A DNA stretch of 64,000 nucleotides from Candidatus Poribacteria bacterium (lineage in GTDB: Bacteria; Poribacteria; WGA-4E; PCPOR2b). Under the pieces are notes generated by a model that searched no databases, was not told the origin of the DNA, and saw only the letters and a list, made by a program, of their open reading frames with translations. Each line of letters starts with the position of its first letter. The stretch's first letter is position 1. Location of the stretch: assembly GCA_965208675.1 (NCBI GenBank), contig OZ242351.1, forward strand, positions 2,240,001-2,304,000, given 5' to 3'. Shown piece by piece: positions 34,849 to 52,231 of this stretch. The position numbers and the translations under genes were made by a program.

Positions 34849-36567
34849 ATGCCTCTCAACATCCCGCGACGCACCTACACAGACATCTACGGACCGACCG
34901 TCGGAGATAAAATTCGCCTTGCGGACACCGAACTATTTATCGAAGTCGAGCGTGATTTTACAACTTACGGCGATGAGTCGAAATTTGGAGGCGGCAAGAC
35001 GCTGCGCGACGGCATGGGACAGATGCCCGGTGCAACAAGTGCGGACGGTGTGCTCGATCTCGTACTAACCAATGCGCTAATCCTAGACTATTGGGGAATT
35101 GTCAAGGCAGACATCGGCGTGCGAAACGGAAAAATCGTCGGGATTGGCAAGGCGGGGAATCCAAACATAATGGACGGCGTCACAGAAGGTATGATCGTCG
35201 GTGCAGGCACGGAAGCTATTGCTGCCGAGGGGATGATTGTCACGCCAGGCGGACTTGATGTCCACATCCACTTCATCTGTCCCCAGCAAATTGATGAAGC
35301 CCTCTCTTCGGGAATCACGACGATGATTGGCGGCGGGACTGGACCAGCGACCGGCACCAACGCCACCACCTGCACCCCGGGCGCGTGGAACATTGCGCGA
35401 ATGCTGGAAGCTGCAGACGGTTTCCCAATCAACCTCGGTTTTCTGGGCAAGGGCAACTCATCGCTGCCGGCGTCACTCAACGAACAGATTGAGGCGGGCG
35501 CGTTGGGATTGAAACTCCACGAGGATTGGGGTACGACACCCGCTGCAATCGACTGCTGCCTATCCGTCGCCGAGGAATACGATGTGCAGGTCGCCATACA
35601 CACCGACACACTCAACGAGGCGGGGTTTGTCGAGGATTCCATTGCCGCATTTAAGGGACGAACCATCCACACCTACCACACTGAAGGCGCGGGGGGCGGA
35701 CATGCGCCGGATATCATCAAGGTCTGCGGTCAAAGCAACGTGCTGCCCTCCTCGACCAATCCTACGCGGCCGTTCACGGTCAACACCATTGATGAGCACC
35801 TCGACATGCTAATGGTCTGCCACCATCTAGACTCCTCTATCCCCGAAGACCTGGCATTCGCCGAGTCCCGGATCCGCCCGGAGACTATCGCCGCCGAGGA
35901 TATCCTGCACGACCTCGGCGCATTCAGTATGATGGCGTCCGATTCACAGGCGATGGGGCGTGTCGGCGAAGTCATTCTCCGCACGTGGCAGACTGCCCAC
36001 AAAATGAAAGTCCAACGTGGGCGCCTTCCTGATGAAACGGGCGAAAACGACAACGTTCGTGCAAAACGCTATATCTCCAAATACGCAATAAACCCGGCAA
36101 TCACGCACGGTGTCAACGACCACGTGGGATCGATTGAGGTGGGCAAACTCGCCGATCTCGTGATATGGGATCCAGCCTTTTTTGGCGTCAAACCGCAATT
36201 GGTGCTGAAGGGCGGATTCCTCGTCTGGGCGGCGATGGGCGACGCAAACGCTTCCATTCCAACTCCTCAGCCGGTTCTAGGGCGTCCGATGTTTGGCGCT
36301 TTTGGTCGCCTCCCGTATACCGCCTCCTACACGTTTGTTTCACAGGCTGCTGTTGCGAGAGAGGTCGGTGTGCGTCTCAATCTTCAAAAGCCGACGGTTG
36401 CCGTGCAAAACTGCCGCACTCTAGACAAATCCTCCATGATAAAAAATTCCTACCTGCCGAAGATGGAAGTAAATCCAGAAACCTACGAAGTTCGCGCGGA
36501 TGGCGAACTCCTCACGTGCGAACCCGCCGAAGTCCTTCCCATGGCGCAGCGTTACTTCCTGTTTTGA
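34849..36567 (+). CDS. ureC: Urease alpha subunit
   Basis: [38 protein letters not shown]. Confidence 0.98.
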
Positions 36568-45926: not shown

Positions 45927-48686
45927 ATGGCGCTCAGCGAAATTGAATTAATTCAACGCACACTGGAAGGCGACGAGTCAGCGTACGGTTTTTTGGTCGA
46001 TAAATACAAAGCAGCCGTCCACGCGCTGGCTTACCGCAAACTTGGGGATTTCCACCATGCTGAAGAGATTACCCAAGATACCTTCCTCAAAGCGTATCAG
46101 AAACTATCGACACTCCGCGACCCGCATCGGTTTTCCGGCTGGCTTTACGTCATCGCCGCCCGGCTCTGTTTGTCATGGCGTCGAAAAGAAAGGTCACATA
46201 CACACGCTATCGACAACGTTGAGACAGCCGAGATGAATTCAATGGCTGTGGCGAAGCACGCCGACCAAAAGATTCGTGACGATGTACGCGATACGCTTGA
46301 AAATCTACCCGAAAGCGAGCGAACAGTGTTGACGCTCCACTATTTTGCAGGCATGACCTGCGAAGAAATCGGGCGTTTCATGGGGACATCGCGCAGCGCC
46401 ATTCTTAATCGACTTTATCGCGCCCGACGTCATTTAAAAGAGGAGATGACAGAAATGATACAGCAGACGTCAGGAGCATTTCAACTGCCATACACTGTGA
46501 CGCAACAGATCATAGGCAGAATCCGCGAACTTCAACCGGCTCCGCCGCCCTCCAGTAAACCCATTGTTCCGTGGATTGCTGTCGCGGCGCTCAGTTTAGT
46601 GGTTCTGTTCGTCGGGTTGGCACCACGACAGATGACCCATTTTCAGCATCCATATAGCCTTAACGCGCTAGAACCCGCGACGCTGGTCGACGTAATTGAT
46701 GCGCCGATAATTGACCTGCCCGTGACCAAACCGGCTCTTGTGAATCGACTGGGTACACCGAATGCGGAAAACACCCATGACGGCAACGGCGCATCCGATA
46801 ACGTTTTGGCGGCTGCAAAGGATCCCCAGAACGGCGAATGGATGCAGCTCGGCTGGACGCAAACCAATGGTCCCTACGGGGGTGAAATTCGCGCATTCCA
46901 TGCCACGCCGGAAGACGTAATCTTCACCGGAACGGCGGGGGCAGGTATTTTCCGCTCAGCCGATGGCGGCGATTTTTGGACGCCGGTCAATACAGGGTTG
47001 TCATACGACAGGGGAGAGGGTTTTATGCCTGTCAATGCCTTTGTACATAAAGACAACTCGCTCTACGCTGGCACGAGTGACGGTTTGTACGTTTCAACCA
47101 ACCGCGGAGAATCATGGCGCAGAATGACGCATGATCGTAAGTATTCTGGTGTCAATGGCGTGCTCTTTATCAACAATCGCCTCTACATTAGCACATTCGA
47201 AGACGGTGTTTGGTATACAGATGATAACGGGGATTCGTGGATACCGATTAACGATGGATTGGAAAACCTGGGTATTCGTGAATTTGCCGCGATGGGGACC
47301 ACCCTATTCGCGGGCACTCAGGACGGGGCTTTTCGCAGAAGAGCAAGTGAGAACTCGTGGACACCAATCAATGCAGGCTTTACAGTGCAACCGATTAATA
47401 TCGATGCCATCAACAAATCGCTTATTGAGTCGGGAGCGAATCCGTTGCGAATGAGCCAATTCCCATCGGGATTGCGGGTAGATTCGTTGGCTGTCATGGG
47501 AGATGCGCTTTACATGGGATTATACATGGGCAAAGACAAAGGGCTGTTTCGTTCAGTGGACGAAGGAGACTCCTGGACGCGAATCACCGCAGAATCGATG
47601 ATACATACCGTCGAAGCGTTATCGGTGTCGGGAACGATTTTGTACGCGAGTACCTTTGGAGGTGGTGTATTCCGTTCAAGCGATGGCGGCAATTCTTGGA
47701 CAGAAGTAAACGATGGCTTAACAAACCAAACGGTCTCTGCGTTGTTAGCCGTAAGTGAGGAAACTGTTTTCGTCGGAACGGATAGTGGCGTTTTCCGCTC
47801 TACGGATAGCGGAGATTCTTGGATTGAAGTCAACGCTGGCATGACGAATACGTGGGTAGACAATCTCGCGGTCGTTGGCGAAACCGTTTACGCCGGATTC
47901 GGCGATCGATTTGGTCATTCAGTTGACGGCGGAAAGTTATGGACGCCCGTGAAGAATGGCGCGGCACCGGCACAATACCATTTTTCCGCACTATTGGTTT
48001 CGGGCGGAAAACTTTATGCTGCTGCGACTCGCTTCGCCGATACCGTCGAAGGTGGCATATATCAGTTAGATGCAGAGCGAAATTCGTTGATAGAACTCTA
48101 CGTGGACAGGAGATTGTCTACAATCGAGTCCTTGGAAATTGTCGGTACGACATTCTATGTCGGAACCCAGGGTGATGGTGTTTTTCGTTGGGAGAAAGAC
48201 TTGGATTCATGGACAAATCTCGGATTGCAGGGCCATGCCATCGCGGCGTTGTCGGTGAATGAAAGGATTGTTTTCGTTGGAACTGGGCAGGGAGAGATTT
48301 TTCGCTTGAAAGACACTGAAAAATCATGGGAATTAACCAATGAAGACATGAATAGTGATGCTATAACAGAGCTCAAGTGGATTGGAACGACACTCTACGC
48401 CGCCACTTGGGATGTGGGCGTCTTCCGTTCCGATGACGGCGGCGATTCGTGGATACCAGTTAATGTTGGATTAGCTAATACATCGGTTATGACAATACAT
48501 GCTGACGGATCGACACTTTTTGCAGGAACATATTACAACGGTGTTTTTCGGTTGGCGCGTGAAAAAAATCTGTGGGAGCCGATCGGTTCACTCGCCCACC
48601 GGGTTGATTCGTTGGCGGTCCTTGATGGCGTCCTTTACGCAGGCACAACCGGGCGAGGCGTGTTCCGCATCCCGCTTGAGAAGTAG
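45927..48686 (+). CDS. ECF sigma factor fused via a TM helix to a BNR/beta-propeller sensor domain
   Basis: AEEITQDTFLKAY, FSGWLY.IA, LPE.ER.VL.L.Y..G....EI, RLYRAR..LK; TM IVPWIAVAALSLVVLFVGLA; repeated GVFRS.DGG.SW Asp-boxes. Confidence 0.9.
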   Translation: MALSEIELIQRTLEGDESAYGFLVDKYKAAVHALAYRKLGDFHHAEEITQDTFLKAYQKLSTLRDPHRFSGWLYVIAARLCLSWRRKERSHTHAIDNVETAEMNSMAVAKHADQKIRDDVRDTLENLPESERTVLTLHYFAGMTCEEIGRFMGTSRSAILNRLYRARRHLKEEMTEMIQQTSGAFQLPYTVTQQIIGRIRELQPAPPPSSKPIVPWIAVAALSLVVLFVGLAPRQMTHFQHPYSLNALEPATLVDVIDAPIIDLPVTKPALVNRLGTPNAENTHDGNGASDNVLAAAKDPQNGEWMQLGWTQTNGPYGGEIRAFHATPEDVIFTGTAGAGIFRSADGGDFWTPVNTGLSYDRGEGFMPVNAFVHKDNSLYAGTSDGLYVSTNRGESWRRMTHDRKYSGVNGVLFINNRLYISTFEDGVWYTDDNGDSWIPINDGLENLGIREFAAMGTTLFAGTQDGAFRRRASENSWTPINAGFTVQPINIDAINKSLIESGANPLRMSQFPSGLRVDSLAVMGDALYMGLYMGKDKGLFRSVDEGDSWTRITAESMIHTVEALSVSGTILYASTFGGGVFRSSDGGNSWTEVNDGLTNQTVSALLAVSEETVFVGTDSGVFRSTDSGDSWIEVNAGMTNTWVDNLAVVGETVYAGFGDRFGHSVDGGKLWTPVKNGAAPAQYHFSALLVSGGKLYAAATRFADTVEGGIYQLDAERNSLIELYVDRRLSTIESLEIVGTTFYVGTQGDGVFRWEKDLDSWTNLGLQGHAIAALSVNERIVFVGTGQGEIFRLKDTEKSWELTNEDMNSDAITELKWIGTTLYAATWDVGVFRSDDGGDSWIPVNVGLANTSVMTIHADGSTLFAGTYYNGVFRLAREKNLWEPIGSLAHRVDSLAVLDGVLYAGTTGRGVFRIPLEK

Positions 48687-49017
48687 TTTTTGTTGGTTGG
48701 GTTAAGCGATCAACCGACTGAATCGGGAGGTGAAATAATCTCTGCCTTCCCAGCAAGTGACAATTAAACTTCTACCCTTCAACATCACGGGCAAATTGTT
48801 GCATCGCTTCCGAGCAATGATTCTATTTGTACGTTGTTTGACTGTAGCGTAACCCGACGCTTTTCGTGTCCCCCAAACCCTTCCGGTCGACTAATCACTT
48901 CGCAATCCACAAAAGGCGTTGGGTTACACTTCATCTATCAAATCTCGGAAGTGGTTAACATGCCGATCAATTCGCTATAACAAACATCATTCGTGTAATC
49001 CGCTCAACCCAACCTAC
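48686..49017. mobile_element. REPIN/MITE-like element II
   Basis: gtttttgttggttgggttaagc ... gttgggttac ... ccgctcaacccaacctac; abuts the ECF stop codon. Confidence 0.75.
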
Positions 49018-49295
49018 AATGACTTTGGATGTACACCCCCTGCGAATGATCTCGACCAAATGTTCGATCCAATACCAGATCCATAGCCATTTTTGCAGCC
49101 CCTCCCATTTTATTCGTCCCAAGCAAAAAATCACCCACCATTTCAGAGCAAATACGCCTTGAAATATGTTAAAATACTATTCACAGACATCTGGGCGAAA
49201 CGACTAAATCGCGGAGGCTTTCAAGCGAACACTGTCCTAGCCGAAATTTAATGCTAGTGATATGTTGCGGTGATTTTTAGAGGTGGCGGTGTAAA

Positions 49296-49402
49296 TTGTC
49301 TGAATCAGGATGCTCAGGATAGAAGGTTGTCAGGACAATAAACGGGAACGCATAGAATCAATCCTGTAAATCTTAAAATCCCGTAAATCCTGATTCAGAC
49401 AA
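49296..49402. mobile_element. MITE-like element with TTGTCTGAATCAGGAT inverted ends
   Basis: ttgtctgaatcaggat ... atcctgattcagacaa with internal ~9-nt aggat/atcct subrepeats. Confidence 0.7.
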
Positions 49403-49661
49403 AATAAGTGAGATTTTGCGATAGCCAGTTGACAGTTGGGTATTCAAACGCACGCAACACCAAATTTTCACATTTTTCAATGACGTGCGCATGATATAAA
49501 AAACAAAGAAAAGAAAAACCAAATCCATCCCCGACGACAAAACCGATATTGAAACTCACTAAAGAACAGGAATGGGCAGCGAACCTCTACGTAGTAGGAC
49601 AAAGAATAGAAATCGCCAGCGTTCAAGCCAAACTACATTGCTTAGGGACGGACGGGAAAAG

Positions 49662-49706
49662 CAAAAAAAATGGGACGACGGGCATTTCGCCCGCCCTCCC
49701 CTTTTT
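49662..49706. terminator. Bidirectional intrinsic terminator
   Basis: aaaaaaaa-tgggacgacgggc-atttc-gcccgccctccc-cttttt: GC-rich stem with a U-tract on both strands. Confidence 0.75.
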
Positions 49707-49863
49707 AATCATTTTGTGTCGTAAGGACGTGATTTGATTTGTCGCCCTGACTTGACGCGTAATGTATTGTCTTGGGGTGTCGCCCTGACTCGATGCGTAC
49801 TGGTTTGTCTCGGTTGGTCGGTGAACCTTGTTTAATCCGACATTAGGATTAGGGCGACACAAC
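49662..49863 (-). ncRNA. Candidate novel ~200-nt small RNA with tandem 38-nt repeats
   Basis: Bounded by a promoter (49870-49898) and a terminator (49662-49706). No ORF starts inside it. The 5' gtgtcgccct is complementary to the repeat ends. Confidence 0.55.
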
Positions 49864-49869
49864 ACTACA

Positions 49870-49898
49870 ATGCTATCATGCCGTCGCGTTTTTGTCAA
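49870..49898 (-). promoter_or_regulatory. Sigma70-type promoter on the minus strand
   Basis: TTGACA-17 nt (aaaacgcgacggcatga)-TAGCAT with extended -10 TG. Confidence 0.7.
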
Positions 49899-50002
49899 GG
49901 AAAAAACTGCCTTCATTCAAAAACGCAATTAGCTGACAGCGGAGTAAGTTGCTCTTTGCGCTAGGATATTGTACCGTCCTCGTACATTGAACATGCAAAA
50001 AA

Positions 50003-52231
50003 ATGGAGAGATATATGGACCAACTTGACCAATCCCAAAGGTTGTTTTGCGAAGCCCCTTCAACAAACATCAGGTTACTTGCACCGGCGGGATGCGGGAA
50101 GACACTTTGTCTACTTTTTCGTTGCAAACACCTCGCCGAACAAGCTAAACCACGTCGTTTGCGCTTCCTCCTTGTGACATTTACTCGTGCCGCTATGCAA
50201 GAATTAAGTAGCCGTCTTGATGAAGACAATCGGTTCGCACACTTGCAAAATTCTATTGAAATCACGACTCTGAACGCTTGGGGAAATCGCCGAATTAGGA
50301 ATGCTGTTTCCTACCCCAGGCTCCTCAATACAAAACGAGACTATCATTTTGCAATGCACAATCAACTTCGACCGGTCTGGCGAAATCATGAGGCTATCAG
50401 AAATGCGATTCAGAGCAGGAATCGACGGACAAGAAATATTGCTCCACGAATGTTGATGGACGTGATTGATGGATTTAAGTCCTTGGGATTCGACCACGTC
50501 ATACATGCAAATTTCAGCCAATTTTCCCAGCAATGGCGCCAACTTGAACTTCAAGGATTAGAATGGAGATTGAAAGAGTTGCTGGGTGAACTAGTCGATC
50601 TTGATATGCTTGATAGCGAGAATCACCACAGCATCAACTTAGTTCTTGCACTCGAAAGAAACGGGGTTGACGTCGGTCGTCTTGTCGATGACGGCGCAAT
50701 TGAAATTGAAATTTTAAACGGCGAGTCTGGCATTGATGCCTTGAGACGTGTAATCGAATCACAGAAACGTGAAGTTTACGATATATTTTACAAATTTTGG
50801 CTAGAAGCCACAGGACATTTACTTGATAGCGCCACGTTTACCCTTGAAGACCAAAAATACTACGTTTACAGGGAAGAGCGCAAGAGCGTAACAGAGGGAC
50901 GTTACCTTTCCGGCGCAGCAGGTTATGACCATGTTTTCGTCGATGAGTTCCAAGATATCAACCCGCTTGATCTAGCGCTAGTCAAAGCCATCGTTGAACG
51001 TAACCGCGCCACGTTGACTATCTCAGGAGACGACGACCAAGCAATATTTGAATGGCGAGGAGCAACGCCTTACTACATCCTAGATCCCGACAGGTTTTTT
51101 GGCTCTGCGTTTCAAACATATACACTCGGCGTAAATTATCGTTCTCCTAGAAACATCGTTGAACATGCCCAACGACTGATTTCCCACAACTCGCGGCGTG
51201 AGCATAAACAAGTTAACGCAGTTAGTTCTCTAGATGCGCGAATTGAGATTAGGGAAACCAGGGGACTCATTGAAGCGCTCGAGTACGTTGATACGATAGT
51301 TAATGAGGAAATTCAACAAGGTAGAAGCCCCAGTCGTGTAGCGATAATTGGGCGGAAACGAAGCCAAATCATCCCGTATCAAATGCATTTTGCGTCTAGA
51401 GATATGCGCTTTTGTGCGGCTGAGGATTTGCAAATTTTCTTGAGCGATACGTTTGGTAGCCTTCTTGACCTTTTAGAAATTAAATCTCGCTCCGATGTTG
51501 CACAGAGAGCGGGGCAGGTTTTAGATGACCTGTTGTTTTTGTGCAACCGCGTGAAAAAATACCCTATTAGAAACGTTGAAATACAAGGCTTAAGAACCTA
51601 TCTTCAACAATCTGATTTATCCACGGTCGTGTCTGCAACAAACACATTGATTGGGTACCGAGGGCGATTAATAAACGAAAATCGCGAAGGGCGTATGAGC
51701 ATCGCTATGGCGGATTCTATAAGAGCATTCAATAACGCTGAGACCGTATCAGATGCACTAATCGAACTAAGTGACAAGTTCGAGGGGCTACAACGTGATT
51801 TTGGTAAGGCTGAAAATGACATTTTTTACGTAGATCCCCCCTTCTTTCAGTTGGCTGAGTACGCGTCAAGCTATGGTGATGATTATGATTCCTTCATCGG
51901 CGACATTGAGAGGGCGAGGGAAACGCTAGTTTATATTCCTCCATTTGAACAGGAGGATCAAGAAAACTTATGGAATCACCCTCTTCACCTGATGACGGCA
52001 TTGCGCGCTAAGGGAAAAGAGTTTAACACAGTGATATTACTTGATGTGAACGATGGGATATGGCCAAATCGAAATGCAGACACTCCTGCGAAGCAAGAGG
52101 CTGAACGGCGTGTCTTCTATGTAGCGTTCACACGGGCTAGAAAACGTGTTGTAATGTTGGTGAATTCGCGCATGGGCAATCGAGAAGCTGCGCCATCACC
52201 CTATATTGAAGAACTTGGTTTTGAGCGATGA
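50003..52231 (+). CDS. UvrD/REP-family (SF1A) ATP-dependent helicase, stand-alone
   Basis: APAGCGKT, VTFTRAA..EL, VDEFQD, GDDDQAIFEWRGA, NYRSP, T...AKGKEF, ERRVFYVAFTRA. Confidence 0.9.
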   Translation: MERYMDQLDQSQRLFCEAPSTNIRLLAPAGCGKTLCLLFRCKHLAEQAKPRRLRFLLVTFTRAAMQELSSRLDEDNRFAHLQNSIEITTLNAWGNRRIRNAVSYPRLLNTKRDYHFAMHNQLRPVWRNHEAIRNAIQSRNRRTRNIAPRMLMDVIDGFKSLGFDHVIHANFSQFSQQWRQLELQGLEWRLKELLGELVDLDMLDSENHHSINLVLALERNGVDVGRLVDDGAIEIEILNGESGIDALRRVIESQKREVYDIFYKFWLEATGHLLDSATFTLEDQKYYVYREERKSVTEGRYLSGAAGYDHVFVDEFQDINPLDLALVKAIVERNRATLTISGDDDQAIFEWRGATPYYILDPDRFFGSAFQTYTLGVNYRSPRNIVEHAQRLISHNSRREHKQVNAVSSLDARIEIRETRGLIEALEYVDTIVNEEIQQGRSPSRVAIIGRKRSQIIPYQMHFASRDMRFCAAEDLQIFLSDTFGSLLDLLEIKSRSDVAQRAGQVLDDLLFLCNRVKKYPIRNVEIQGLRTYLQQSDLSTVVSATNTLIGYRGRLINENREGRMSIAMADSIRAFNNAETVSDALIELSDKFEGLQRDFGKAENDIFYVDPPFFQLAEYASSYGDDYDSFIGDIERARETLVYIPPFEQEDQENLWNHPLHLMTALRAKGKEFNTVILLDVNDGIWPNRNADTPAKQEAERRVFYVAFTRARKRVVMLVNSRMGNREAAPSPYIEELGFER

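Follow-up and report, generated by a model that had tools for sequence, protein, structure and literature searches.

The intergenic DNA upstream of a UvrD-like helicase gene in a Candidatus Poribacteria genome harbors, with a probability of about one half, a small, independently transcribed non-coding RNA gene that is restricted to one genus of this phylum. The putative gene is located in a 64,000-nt stretch of DNA (the window; G000:C1:2240001-2304000) of a genome, designated G000, consisting of one contig of 4.89 Mb with 49% G+C and 96.4% completeness. A housekeeping-type promoter would start an RNA of ~200 nt, and a strong intrinsic terminator would end it. The 5' end of this RNA would close a helix with a AGGGCGACA(C) sequence, followed by a short single-stranded A/U-rich linker and then the terminator. 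In G000, the loop of the helix appears to have grown, and a 38-nt segment carrying the 3' strand of the helix appears to have been duplicated in tandem, such that the helix would now be closed by unit 1 of the repeat, with unit 2, the older copy, placed in a weaker hairpin downstream. We infer transcription, its start and end points and the function of the RNA from the sequence. If transcribed, the RNA would be one of the earliest regulatory RNA candidates identified in Candidatus Poribacteria, a phylum of uncultivated sponge symbionts. It would also illustrate, on a small scale, a change of sRNA shape between sister species, with a simple 5' hairpin in the congener G002 and a three-way domain in G000, the latter built through enlargement of the loop and tandem duplication of 38 nt. 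The unit reveals no novel type of system, nor does it account for the helicase.

Organization of the Predicted RNA Gene

The elements of the unit are listed in Table 1. An earlier reading of the same DNA made without database searches (the sequence-only reading) had named a promoter, a 5' strand, a hairpin, two 38-nt units and a terminator, and all of these were recovered on the minus strand where it had placed them; the helicase ATG at 50003 lies 105 nt past the -35 box, also as described. The two promoter hexamers are separated by a 17-nt spacer and match the consensus at 10 of 12 positions, with a TG located one base upstream of the -10 hexamer. The terminator begins 39 nt after unit 2, and its stem has a predicted stability of -24.0 kcal/mol (z -4.3), which was equaled by none of 200 shuffled sequences. 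When read on the plus strand, the terminator also forms a hairpin (-18.4 kcal/mol, z -3.2), there followed by U5.

Table 1. Predicted elements of the unit and the adjacent helicase gene (window positions).
Feature	Position	Strand	Basis or remark
-35 box TTGACA	49898-49893	minus	perfect hexamer; homologous to TTGACG in G002
Extended -10 box, TG + one base + TAGCAT	49870..49878 (hexamer 49875-49870)	minus	homologous to TAAAAT in G002
Predicted transcript start	~49863	minus	from spacing to the -10 box
Closing-helix 5' strand GTGTCGCCCT, 10 nt	49860-49851	minus	in MFE and centroid structures; pair probability ~1.0
Hairpin TAATCC / 7-nt loop / GGATTA	49851-49833	minus	sequence and fold
Repeat unit 1, 38 nt	49815-49778	minus	sequence, repeat search and fold
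AGGGCGACAC, last 10 nt of unit 1, predicted closing-helix 3' strand	49786-49777	minus	fold
Repeat unit 2, 38 nt, abutting unit 1	49777-49740	minus	sequence and repeat search
Linker AATCACGTCCTTACGACACAAAATGATTA	49706..49734	minus	alignment with G002
Predicted intrinsic terminator	49663..49700 (stem 49700-49672, U8 49670-49663)	minus	fold and shuffles
UvrD-like helicase	50003..52231	plus	context only, membership in the unit not shown

The longest complete ORF within the predicted transcript has 3 codons. A 97-aa ORF on the minus strand spans the unit, but its start lies upstream of the -35 box, and it showed no match in Pfam or PADLOC. Two frames of 62 and 80 codons on the plus strand were likewise rejected as small proteins, as they matched no family, and none of the three frames showed a codon-position bias in comparison with G002, where the frames are lost. 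In the best-conserved nearby frame, the differences from G002 were distributed over the codon positions as 13, 9 and 11 (of 47, 46 and 46). Frames around and downstream of the terminator gave no Pfam or PADLOC match (E <= 1) reaching the family cut-off. The description of the unit as non-coding agrees with these observations, namely, the length of the longest ORF, the absence of family matches and the even codon-position differences.

Calibration of the Promoter and Terminator on the Whole Genome

Consensus scans of positions 49000-50300 returned 2 promoter-like sites compared with 1.8 in shuffled sequences and 1 terminator-like site compared with 1.4. Such loose local scans being uninformative, the calibration was carried out on the whole genome. 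Promoters with at least 10 of 12 consensus matches were present within 120 nt upstream of 16 of the 49 tRNA genes as against 39 of 3000 random 120-mers, and all 16 contained a perfect TTGACA, i.e., they belong to the same class as the promoter of the unit. Promoter-like sites were defined by TTGACA, a 16-18-nt spacer and a TAnnnT hexamer with at least 4 of 6 matches; a strong terminator was found 40-350 nt downstream of 16 of the 497 such sites and of 5 of 1500 random positions, an approximately tenfold enrichment. Chance alone would account for ~1.7 of these 16 pairs, and hence an orphan like this unit could be among them. The pairs comprise three tRNA operons, a cobalamin riboswitch and a T-box leader (both matching Rfam), five copies of a repeated cassette and six orphans, including the unit. 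On this calibration, an orphan promoter-terminator unit of this kind is probably real. The tRNA-type promoter, together with the enrichment of promoter-terminator pairs, makes a discrete transcript of ~200 nt likely. No RNA run was present among the sequencing runs found to contain the unit sequence. The sequence-only reading had proposed a self-contained non-coding transcription unit, which is plausible in view of the promoter class, the pairing frequencies (16/497 vs. 5/1500) and the lack of both a coding signal and an Rfam match; transcription itself is a prediction.

The five cassette copies are promoter-to-terminator units at positions 1655648, 4493253, 4875660, 3128366 and 649908 of G000:C1. 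Their terminators are near-identical (…AACGGCGAGGCGAGGGCGCTG…CCCTCGC followed by a U-run), and the five sites were therefore regarded as copies of one repeated cassette. Similar to the unit, the cassette is short and intergenic, with a TTGACA promoter, a G+C-rich terminator and an AATCC/GGATT hairpin. The unit, however, is single-copy and departs from the cassette copies in both its body and the sequence of its terminator. In the five other orphans (G000:C1 1007913, 1440726, 2504542, 400269 and 389816), which measure 55-267 nt, a strong TTGACA promoter is followed by a terminator that is likewise strong, and Rfam returned nothing for them at E <= 0.01. Each is a candidate for a small RNA or a small-protein gene, and the one at 1007913 contains a 41-codon ORF.

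Tandem Repeat and Predicted RNA Fold

Units 1 and 2 are identical at 30 of 38 positions (79%, by manual count), and a repeat search that set them in another register gave 71%. Both units end in the exact 13-mer AGTCAGGGCGACA (49790-49778 and 49752-49740), and an inverted 10-nt copy of the repeat core is present at the 5' end of the RNA. By simple arithmetic, an exact 13-mer repeat is expected ~0.004 times within ~700 nt. The 12-mer core occurs three times in the 4.9-Mb genome, two of these occurrences being in the unit, compared with ~0.5 expected. The 9-mer of AGGGCGACA is not enriched genome-wide (29 seen vs. ~35 expected). The two-copy array was not reported by Tandem Repeats Finder, even at a minimum score of 30. 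In contigs assembled from sequencing runs, one contig per run spanned 49200-50400 with 0 differences and no joints, and the repeat number was invariant; these contigs represent four runs from one sample of one study, which is probably the source of the assembly itself.

The full 199-nt RNA was predicted to fold with -62.6 kcal/mol (z -4.2), and none of 200 shuffled sequences was equally stable. For the 5' domain alone, the z score was -2.4, with 5 of 200 shuffled sequences equally stable. Pairing of the 5' strand with unit 1 gave -62.5 kcal/mol as compared with -58.4 kcal/mol for unit 2, and the corresponding pair probabilities were ~1.0 and 0.0. It had been suggested from the sequence that the 5' end can pair with the two repeat ends in mutually exclusive ways; both pairings are indeed possible, but that with unit 1 is predicted to dominate.

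Comparison with a Syntenic Congener

The locus of the congener G002 is syntenic, with BLAST identities of 90% for the sigma-fusion gene, 80% for the spacer at 48896-49686 and 88-90% for the helicase. Between the two genomes, BLAST aligned nothing in 49687-49983, the transcribed body as predicted being less conserved than the flanking non-coding DNA, and neither unit found the other at E <= 0.05. A search of the G002 unit against 30 relatives returned only the self match. Global alignment identified as homologous the promoter (CCTTGAC...GCGACGnCATGnTAnnAT), a linker block starting with AATCACG and the 3' half of the terminator; the linker is the sole stretch of the transcript body that aligns clearly. 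The G002 promoter reads TTGACG-17-TAAAAT, with 3 of 12 hexamer positions changed relative to G000, a level of conservation no higher than that of the surrounding DNA.

The G002 unit is ~125 nt long and contains no tandem repeat. A 12-bp hairpin is predicted just after its promoter (-12.4 kcal/mol, z -3.3, 1 of 200 shuffled sequences equally stable), and the 3' strand of this hairpin aligns with the unit 2 core, its positional homolog in G000 (49752-49740), immediately upstream of the AATCACG block. The terminator of G002 has a weak predicted stem (-10.3 kcal/mol, z -1.8) that does not directly adjoin the U-run, and no excess structure is apparent for the whole unit (z -0.39 for 131 nt and +0.16 for the 91 nt around the hairpin). 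As the tandem repeat is absent from G002, it probably arose in the G000 lineage through duplication of the 3' strand of the hairpin, and the comparison suggests an ancestral form composed of a 5' hairpin, a linker and a terminator. The idea of the repeat array as a conserved functional design was not sustained, since the sole homologous unit is without it.

The inner seven pairs of the helix are GUCGCCC/GGGCGAC in G000 and GUUGCGA/UUGUGAC in G002. With a 2-nt shift of the 5' strand, they differ by two double changes and two wobble-compatible single changes, and no pair is broken. Random substitution retained all seven pairs in 0.3-0.5% of trials, a frequency that applies to two sequences and to a register chosen after the helix had been seen. 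RNAalifold predicted 0 pairs on the MAFFT alignment of the two units, in which the 5' strands are set in another register. The compensatory changes therefore lend the helix weak support, considering the post hoc register, the RNAalifold result, the number of sequences and the z scores of the whole G002 unit. In two further congeners, G001 and G003, which are without the helicase, the flanking genes are scattered, and hence no empty site could be defined.

Searches for Homologs and Known RNA Families

Comparison with Rfam had been proposed along with the sequence-only reading, and it assigned the unit to no family, as Rfam 15 gave no overlapping match on its strand at E <= 10. ARAGORN identified the unit as neither a tRNA nor a tmRNA. 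The only gathering-level Rfam match in the window was RF02514 (5' ureB small RNA; 35002-35299, minus strand, 96.5 bits), which may simply reflect the conserved urease coding sequence.

In BLAST searches of its own genome, the only full match of the unit was itself, accompanied by six short matches at E 0.6-7.5, and an intergenic self-BLAST showed 49412-50002 to be single-copy. The best non-self match among 60 relatives was 28 nt in the terminator part (E 0.003). A covariance model of the 5' domain and the units gave three hits in 100 relatives (E 0.39-0.96, 17.7-19.7 bits) as compared with 173.8 bits for the unit itself. The unit had no match in phages and plasmids, and the two-core pattern had 0 hits in viral contigs. 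Being single-copy in its genome and without matches in the 60 relatives, the phages and the plasmids searched, the unit is not a MITE, a REP-like element, a dispersed repeat or a transposon end.

Among 176 genomes of the phylum, the two-core pattern was found in the unit itself and in G081. The G081 hit is a different tandem repeat, of 51 nt, sharing only the 12-mer GTCAGGGCGACA; it is probably coincidental, as any one match to the 12-mer will be present twice once a stretch has been duplicated in tandem. This G081 repeat (locus L108, G081:C1:1570877-1573939, ~1460-1590 reverse) has two copies and a degenerate third, lies just past a gene end and includes the palindrome CCCTGTCAGGG; it is followed by GGATT-phased element copies. 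The three-core pattern gave three hits in JGI metagenome contigs, which are G+C-rich, have only 9-mers in common with the unit and were taken as chance.

Several known classes were rejected. A CRISPR array would not fit, as the units abut without a spacer and are 79% identical, and no Cas domain was detected in the eight large neighboring ORFs. Nor was a reverse transcriptase domain, expected for a retron ncRNA, detected in the eight large ORFs at 43.9-57.4 kb. A riboswitch or attenuator leader was discarded since no minus-strand gene occurs between 49663 and the end of the convergent sigma-fusion gene at 48686. An Hfq-dependent sRNA presupposes Hfq in the organism, and Hfq (PF17209) was not found in this 96.4%-complete genome, the control search having detected it in 5 of 14 genomes. 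A target search with the complement of the 9-mer returned six unremarkable sites near ORF starts. In a full-text literature search, the matches listed included no poribacterial sRNA paper, as judged by title and abstract.

Distribution of the Helicase

The helicase is a generic UvrD-like SF1 protein scoring under every NCBIfam equivalog cut-off. Its similarity in PADLOC is only to GajB-type models, and the PADLOC hit 'RTasHel' is confined to the helicase part. It is present in 2 of the 176 genomes of the phylum, G000 and G002. Relatives with 40-60% identity occur in Chloroflexota, Latescibacterota, Gemmatimonadota, Gammaproteobacteria and other phyla, and the protein relatives P0002, P0003 and P0005-P0008 show 67-88% identity. 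Lateral acquisition of the helicase is likely, given that only two genomes of the phylum carry it and that the next relatives (~60%) belong to other phyla. In G002, the helicase is without ~27 codons present in G000 (window 50616-50698 vs. L018 ~8600); the two proteins align in two blocks, residues 1-206 and 233-742, without any stop codon.

Helicase loci from other phyla were examined for the same divergent repeat RNA, as had been proposed in the sequence-only reading, and none of the 80 resembled the unit (best hits 11-19 nt, E >= 1.7). At 5 of the 76 loci examined for it (four truncated loci were skipped), a hairpin resembling a terminator was found within 700 nt on the divergent strand, and it was syntenic only in G002. 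The neighbors of the helicase are unrelated between genomes (Pfam, 43 of 56 computed flanking ORFs), with no conserved neighbor. The helicase looks like a laterally mobile, stand-alone gene. The sequence-only reading had put forward an undescribed sRNA possibly partnered with the helicase; the former part is plausible, there being no Rfam family, while the latter was left unsupported by the empty loci, the absence of a conserved neighbor and the restriction of a divergent-strand terminator in synteny to the congener. Across the loci compared, an RNA partnership as a general property of the helicase family is excluded.

Alternative Explanations for the Unit

The main rival explanation is that the region is functionless, fast-evolving intergenic DNA, in which a duplication by slippage coincides with a promoter-like site and with a terminator that is either leftover or bidirectional, and any transcript would be noise. 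Nowhere in the locus do the congeners align as poorly as in the unit region, the rest of the 1.3-kb spacer is full of dispersed repeats, and no homolog was found elsewhere in the genomes, phages, plasmids, viral contigs and metagenomes searched. The lack of excess over shuffled sequences in the loose scans, the lack of shared pairs in RNAalifold and the reading of the terminator as a hairpin with U5 on the other strand point in the same direction. Such DNA would, however, not account for the approximately tenfold enrichment of promoter-terminator pairs, of which at least 5 of 16 are known RNAs, or for a promoter with 10 of 12 matches and a 5' helix that occupy the same place in both congeners despite the sequence change. 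Moreover, three 9-10-nt core copies within 125 nt that make a stable helix are unexpected by chance. We consider this explanation rather unlikely but well within reach. It is much harder to accept, and improbable on balance, that the AGGGCGACA copies act as DNA, either as operator- or iteron-like sites for the helicase and sRNA promoters or as the scar or end of a mobile element. Two direct copies and one inverted copy do lie within 125 bp between two divergent promoters, next to a helicase that is found in 2 of 176 phylum genomes and looks laterally acquired. Against such sites, the 9-mer is no more frequent than expected (29 vs. ~35), the unit is single-copy, the sites are absent from G002, and phages, plasmids and viral contigs gave no match; none of the eight large ORFs at 43.9-57.4 kb encodes an integrase, a transposase or a classical one-component regulator.

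An RNA dedicated to the divergent helicase as its guide, regulator or substrate is very improbable. In both helicase-bearing genomes of the phylum (2 of 176), a promoter-terminator unit lies immediately upstream of the gene, on the opposite strand, but G000 and G002 are syntenic congeners, and their co-occurrence therefore counts as a single observation. The 80 loci without similarity (best 11-19 nt, E >= 1.7), the divergent-strand terminators at only 5 of 76 loci, syntenic only in the congener, and the unrelated flanking genes argue against a partnership, and since the helicase and RNA transcripts do not overlap, there is no antisense relation. A narrower version, scarcely more probable, would join the RNA with the laterally acquired helicase in a single module specific to the genus; the duplicated 3' strand would offer two competing closing helices, either as targets for remodeling by the helicase or as a means of its regulation. 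The lowest probability was given to a type III antitoxin-like (ToxI-like) repeat RNA whose toxin gene has been lost or which serves an unlinked endoribonuclease. In Table 2 of Blower et al. (2012; PMC3401426), type III loci have repeats of 31-62 nt in 1.9-5.6 copies, and the promoter, approximately two 38-nt tandem repeats and terminator of the unit fit within these ranges, similar to the ToxI, CptI and TenpI RNAs. Compared with the toxIN, cptIN and tenpIN loci as presented there, the unit has the repeat array and the terminator but no downstream endoribonuclease toxin gene. The absence of a type III partner gene, as noted in the sequence-only reading, was confirmed by ORF, Pfam and PADLOC analysis after the terminator in both genomes: the downstream minus-strand ORFs have <=63 codons from stop to stop in both, and no downstream Pfam or PADLOC match (E <= 1) reached the family cut-off. 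ToxN (PF13958) was not found in the genome, in a search whose control found none anywhere either. Furthermore, the repeats are 79% identical and absent from the homologous G002 unit, and one repeat core is predicted to pair with the RNA 5' end, locked in a long-range helix instead of forming a free pseudoknot unit. By its gene content, the unit is not a member of the type III toxin-antitoxin family.

Possible Role of the Predicted RNA

If the unit is a small RNA gene, its product would most likely be trans-acting, regulatory or protein-binding, operating through the linker and/or the spare core copy and independently of the helicase. Like orphan trans-acting sRNAs, it would be ~200 nt long, non-coding and transcribed from a sigma-70-type promoter, with a helix at the 5' end, a linker rich in A and U and a strong terminator ending in a U-tail, and its phylogenetic range is very narrow. 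It differs from them in the 38-nt tandem duplication that made a second copy of one helix strand and in a genome where no Hfq gene was found. CsrB/RsmZ-type protein sponges and duplicated-seed sRNAs are regulatory RNAs with a repeated short motif. The unit shares with the CsrB/RsmZ type a repeated motif, here two identical 13-nt copies in one small RNA, but it has two copies only and no GGA-in-loop pattern, and one of the copies is predicted to be buried in a helix (probability ~1.0).

Other Features of the Locus

Among the eight large ORFs at 43.9-57.4 kb, the sole DNA-directed factor is a fused ECF sigma protein, and no integrase, transposase or classical one-component regulator was found. 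The corresponding gene (45927-48686, plus strand) encodes a protein of 919 aa with an ECF sigma factor (regions 2 and 4) and Sortilin/BNR-type repeats. The composition profile showed no sharp island boundary. Dispersed repeats with multiple copies occupy parts of the 1.3-kb spacer (48687-50002), namely, ~48687-48730, 48837-49036 and 49262-49411. A long near-perfect hairpin at 49290-49405 (TTGTCTGAATCAGGAT...ATCCTGATTCAGACAA) is multi-copy in the genus, and part of it (49359-49402) is present in hundreds of contigs of the source metagenome. This hairpin is probably an AATCC-type repeat element.
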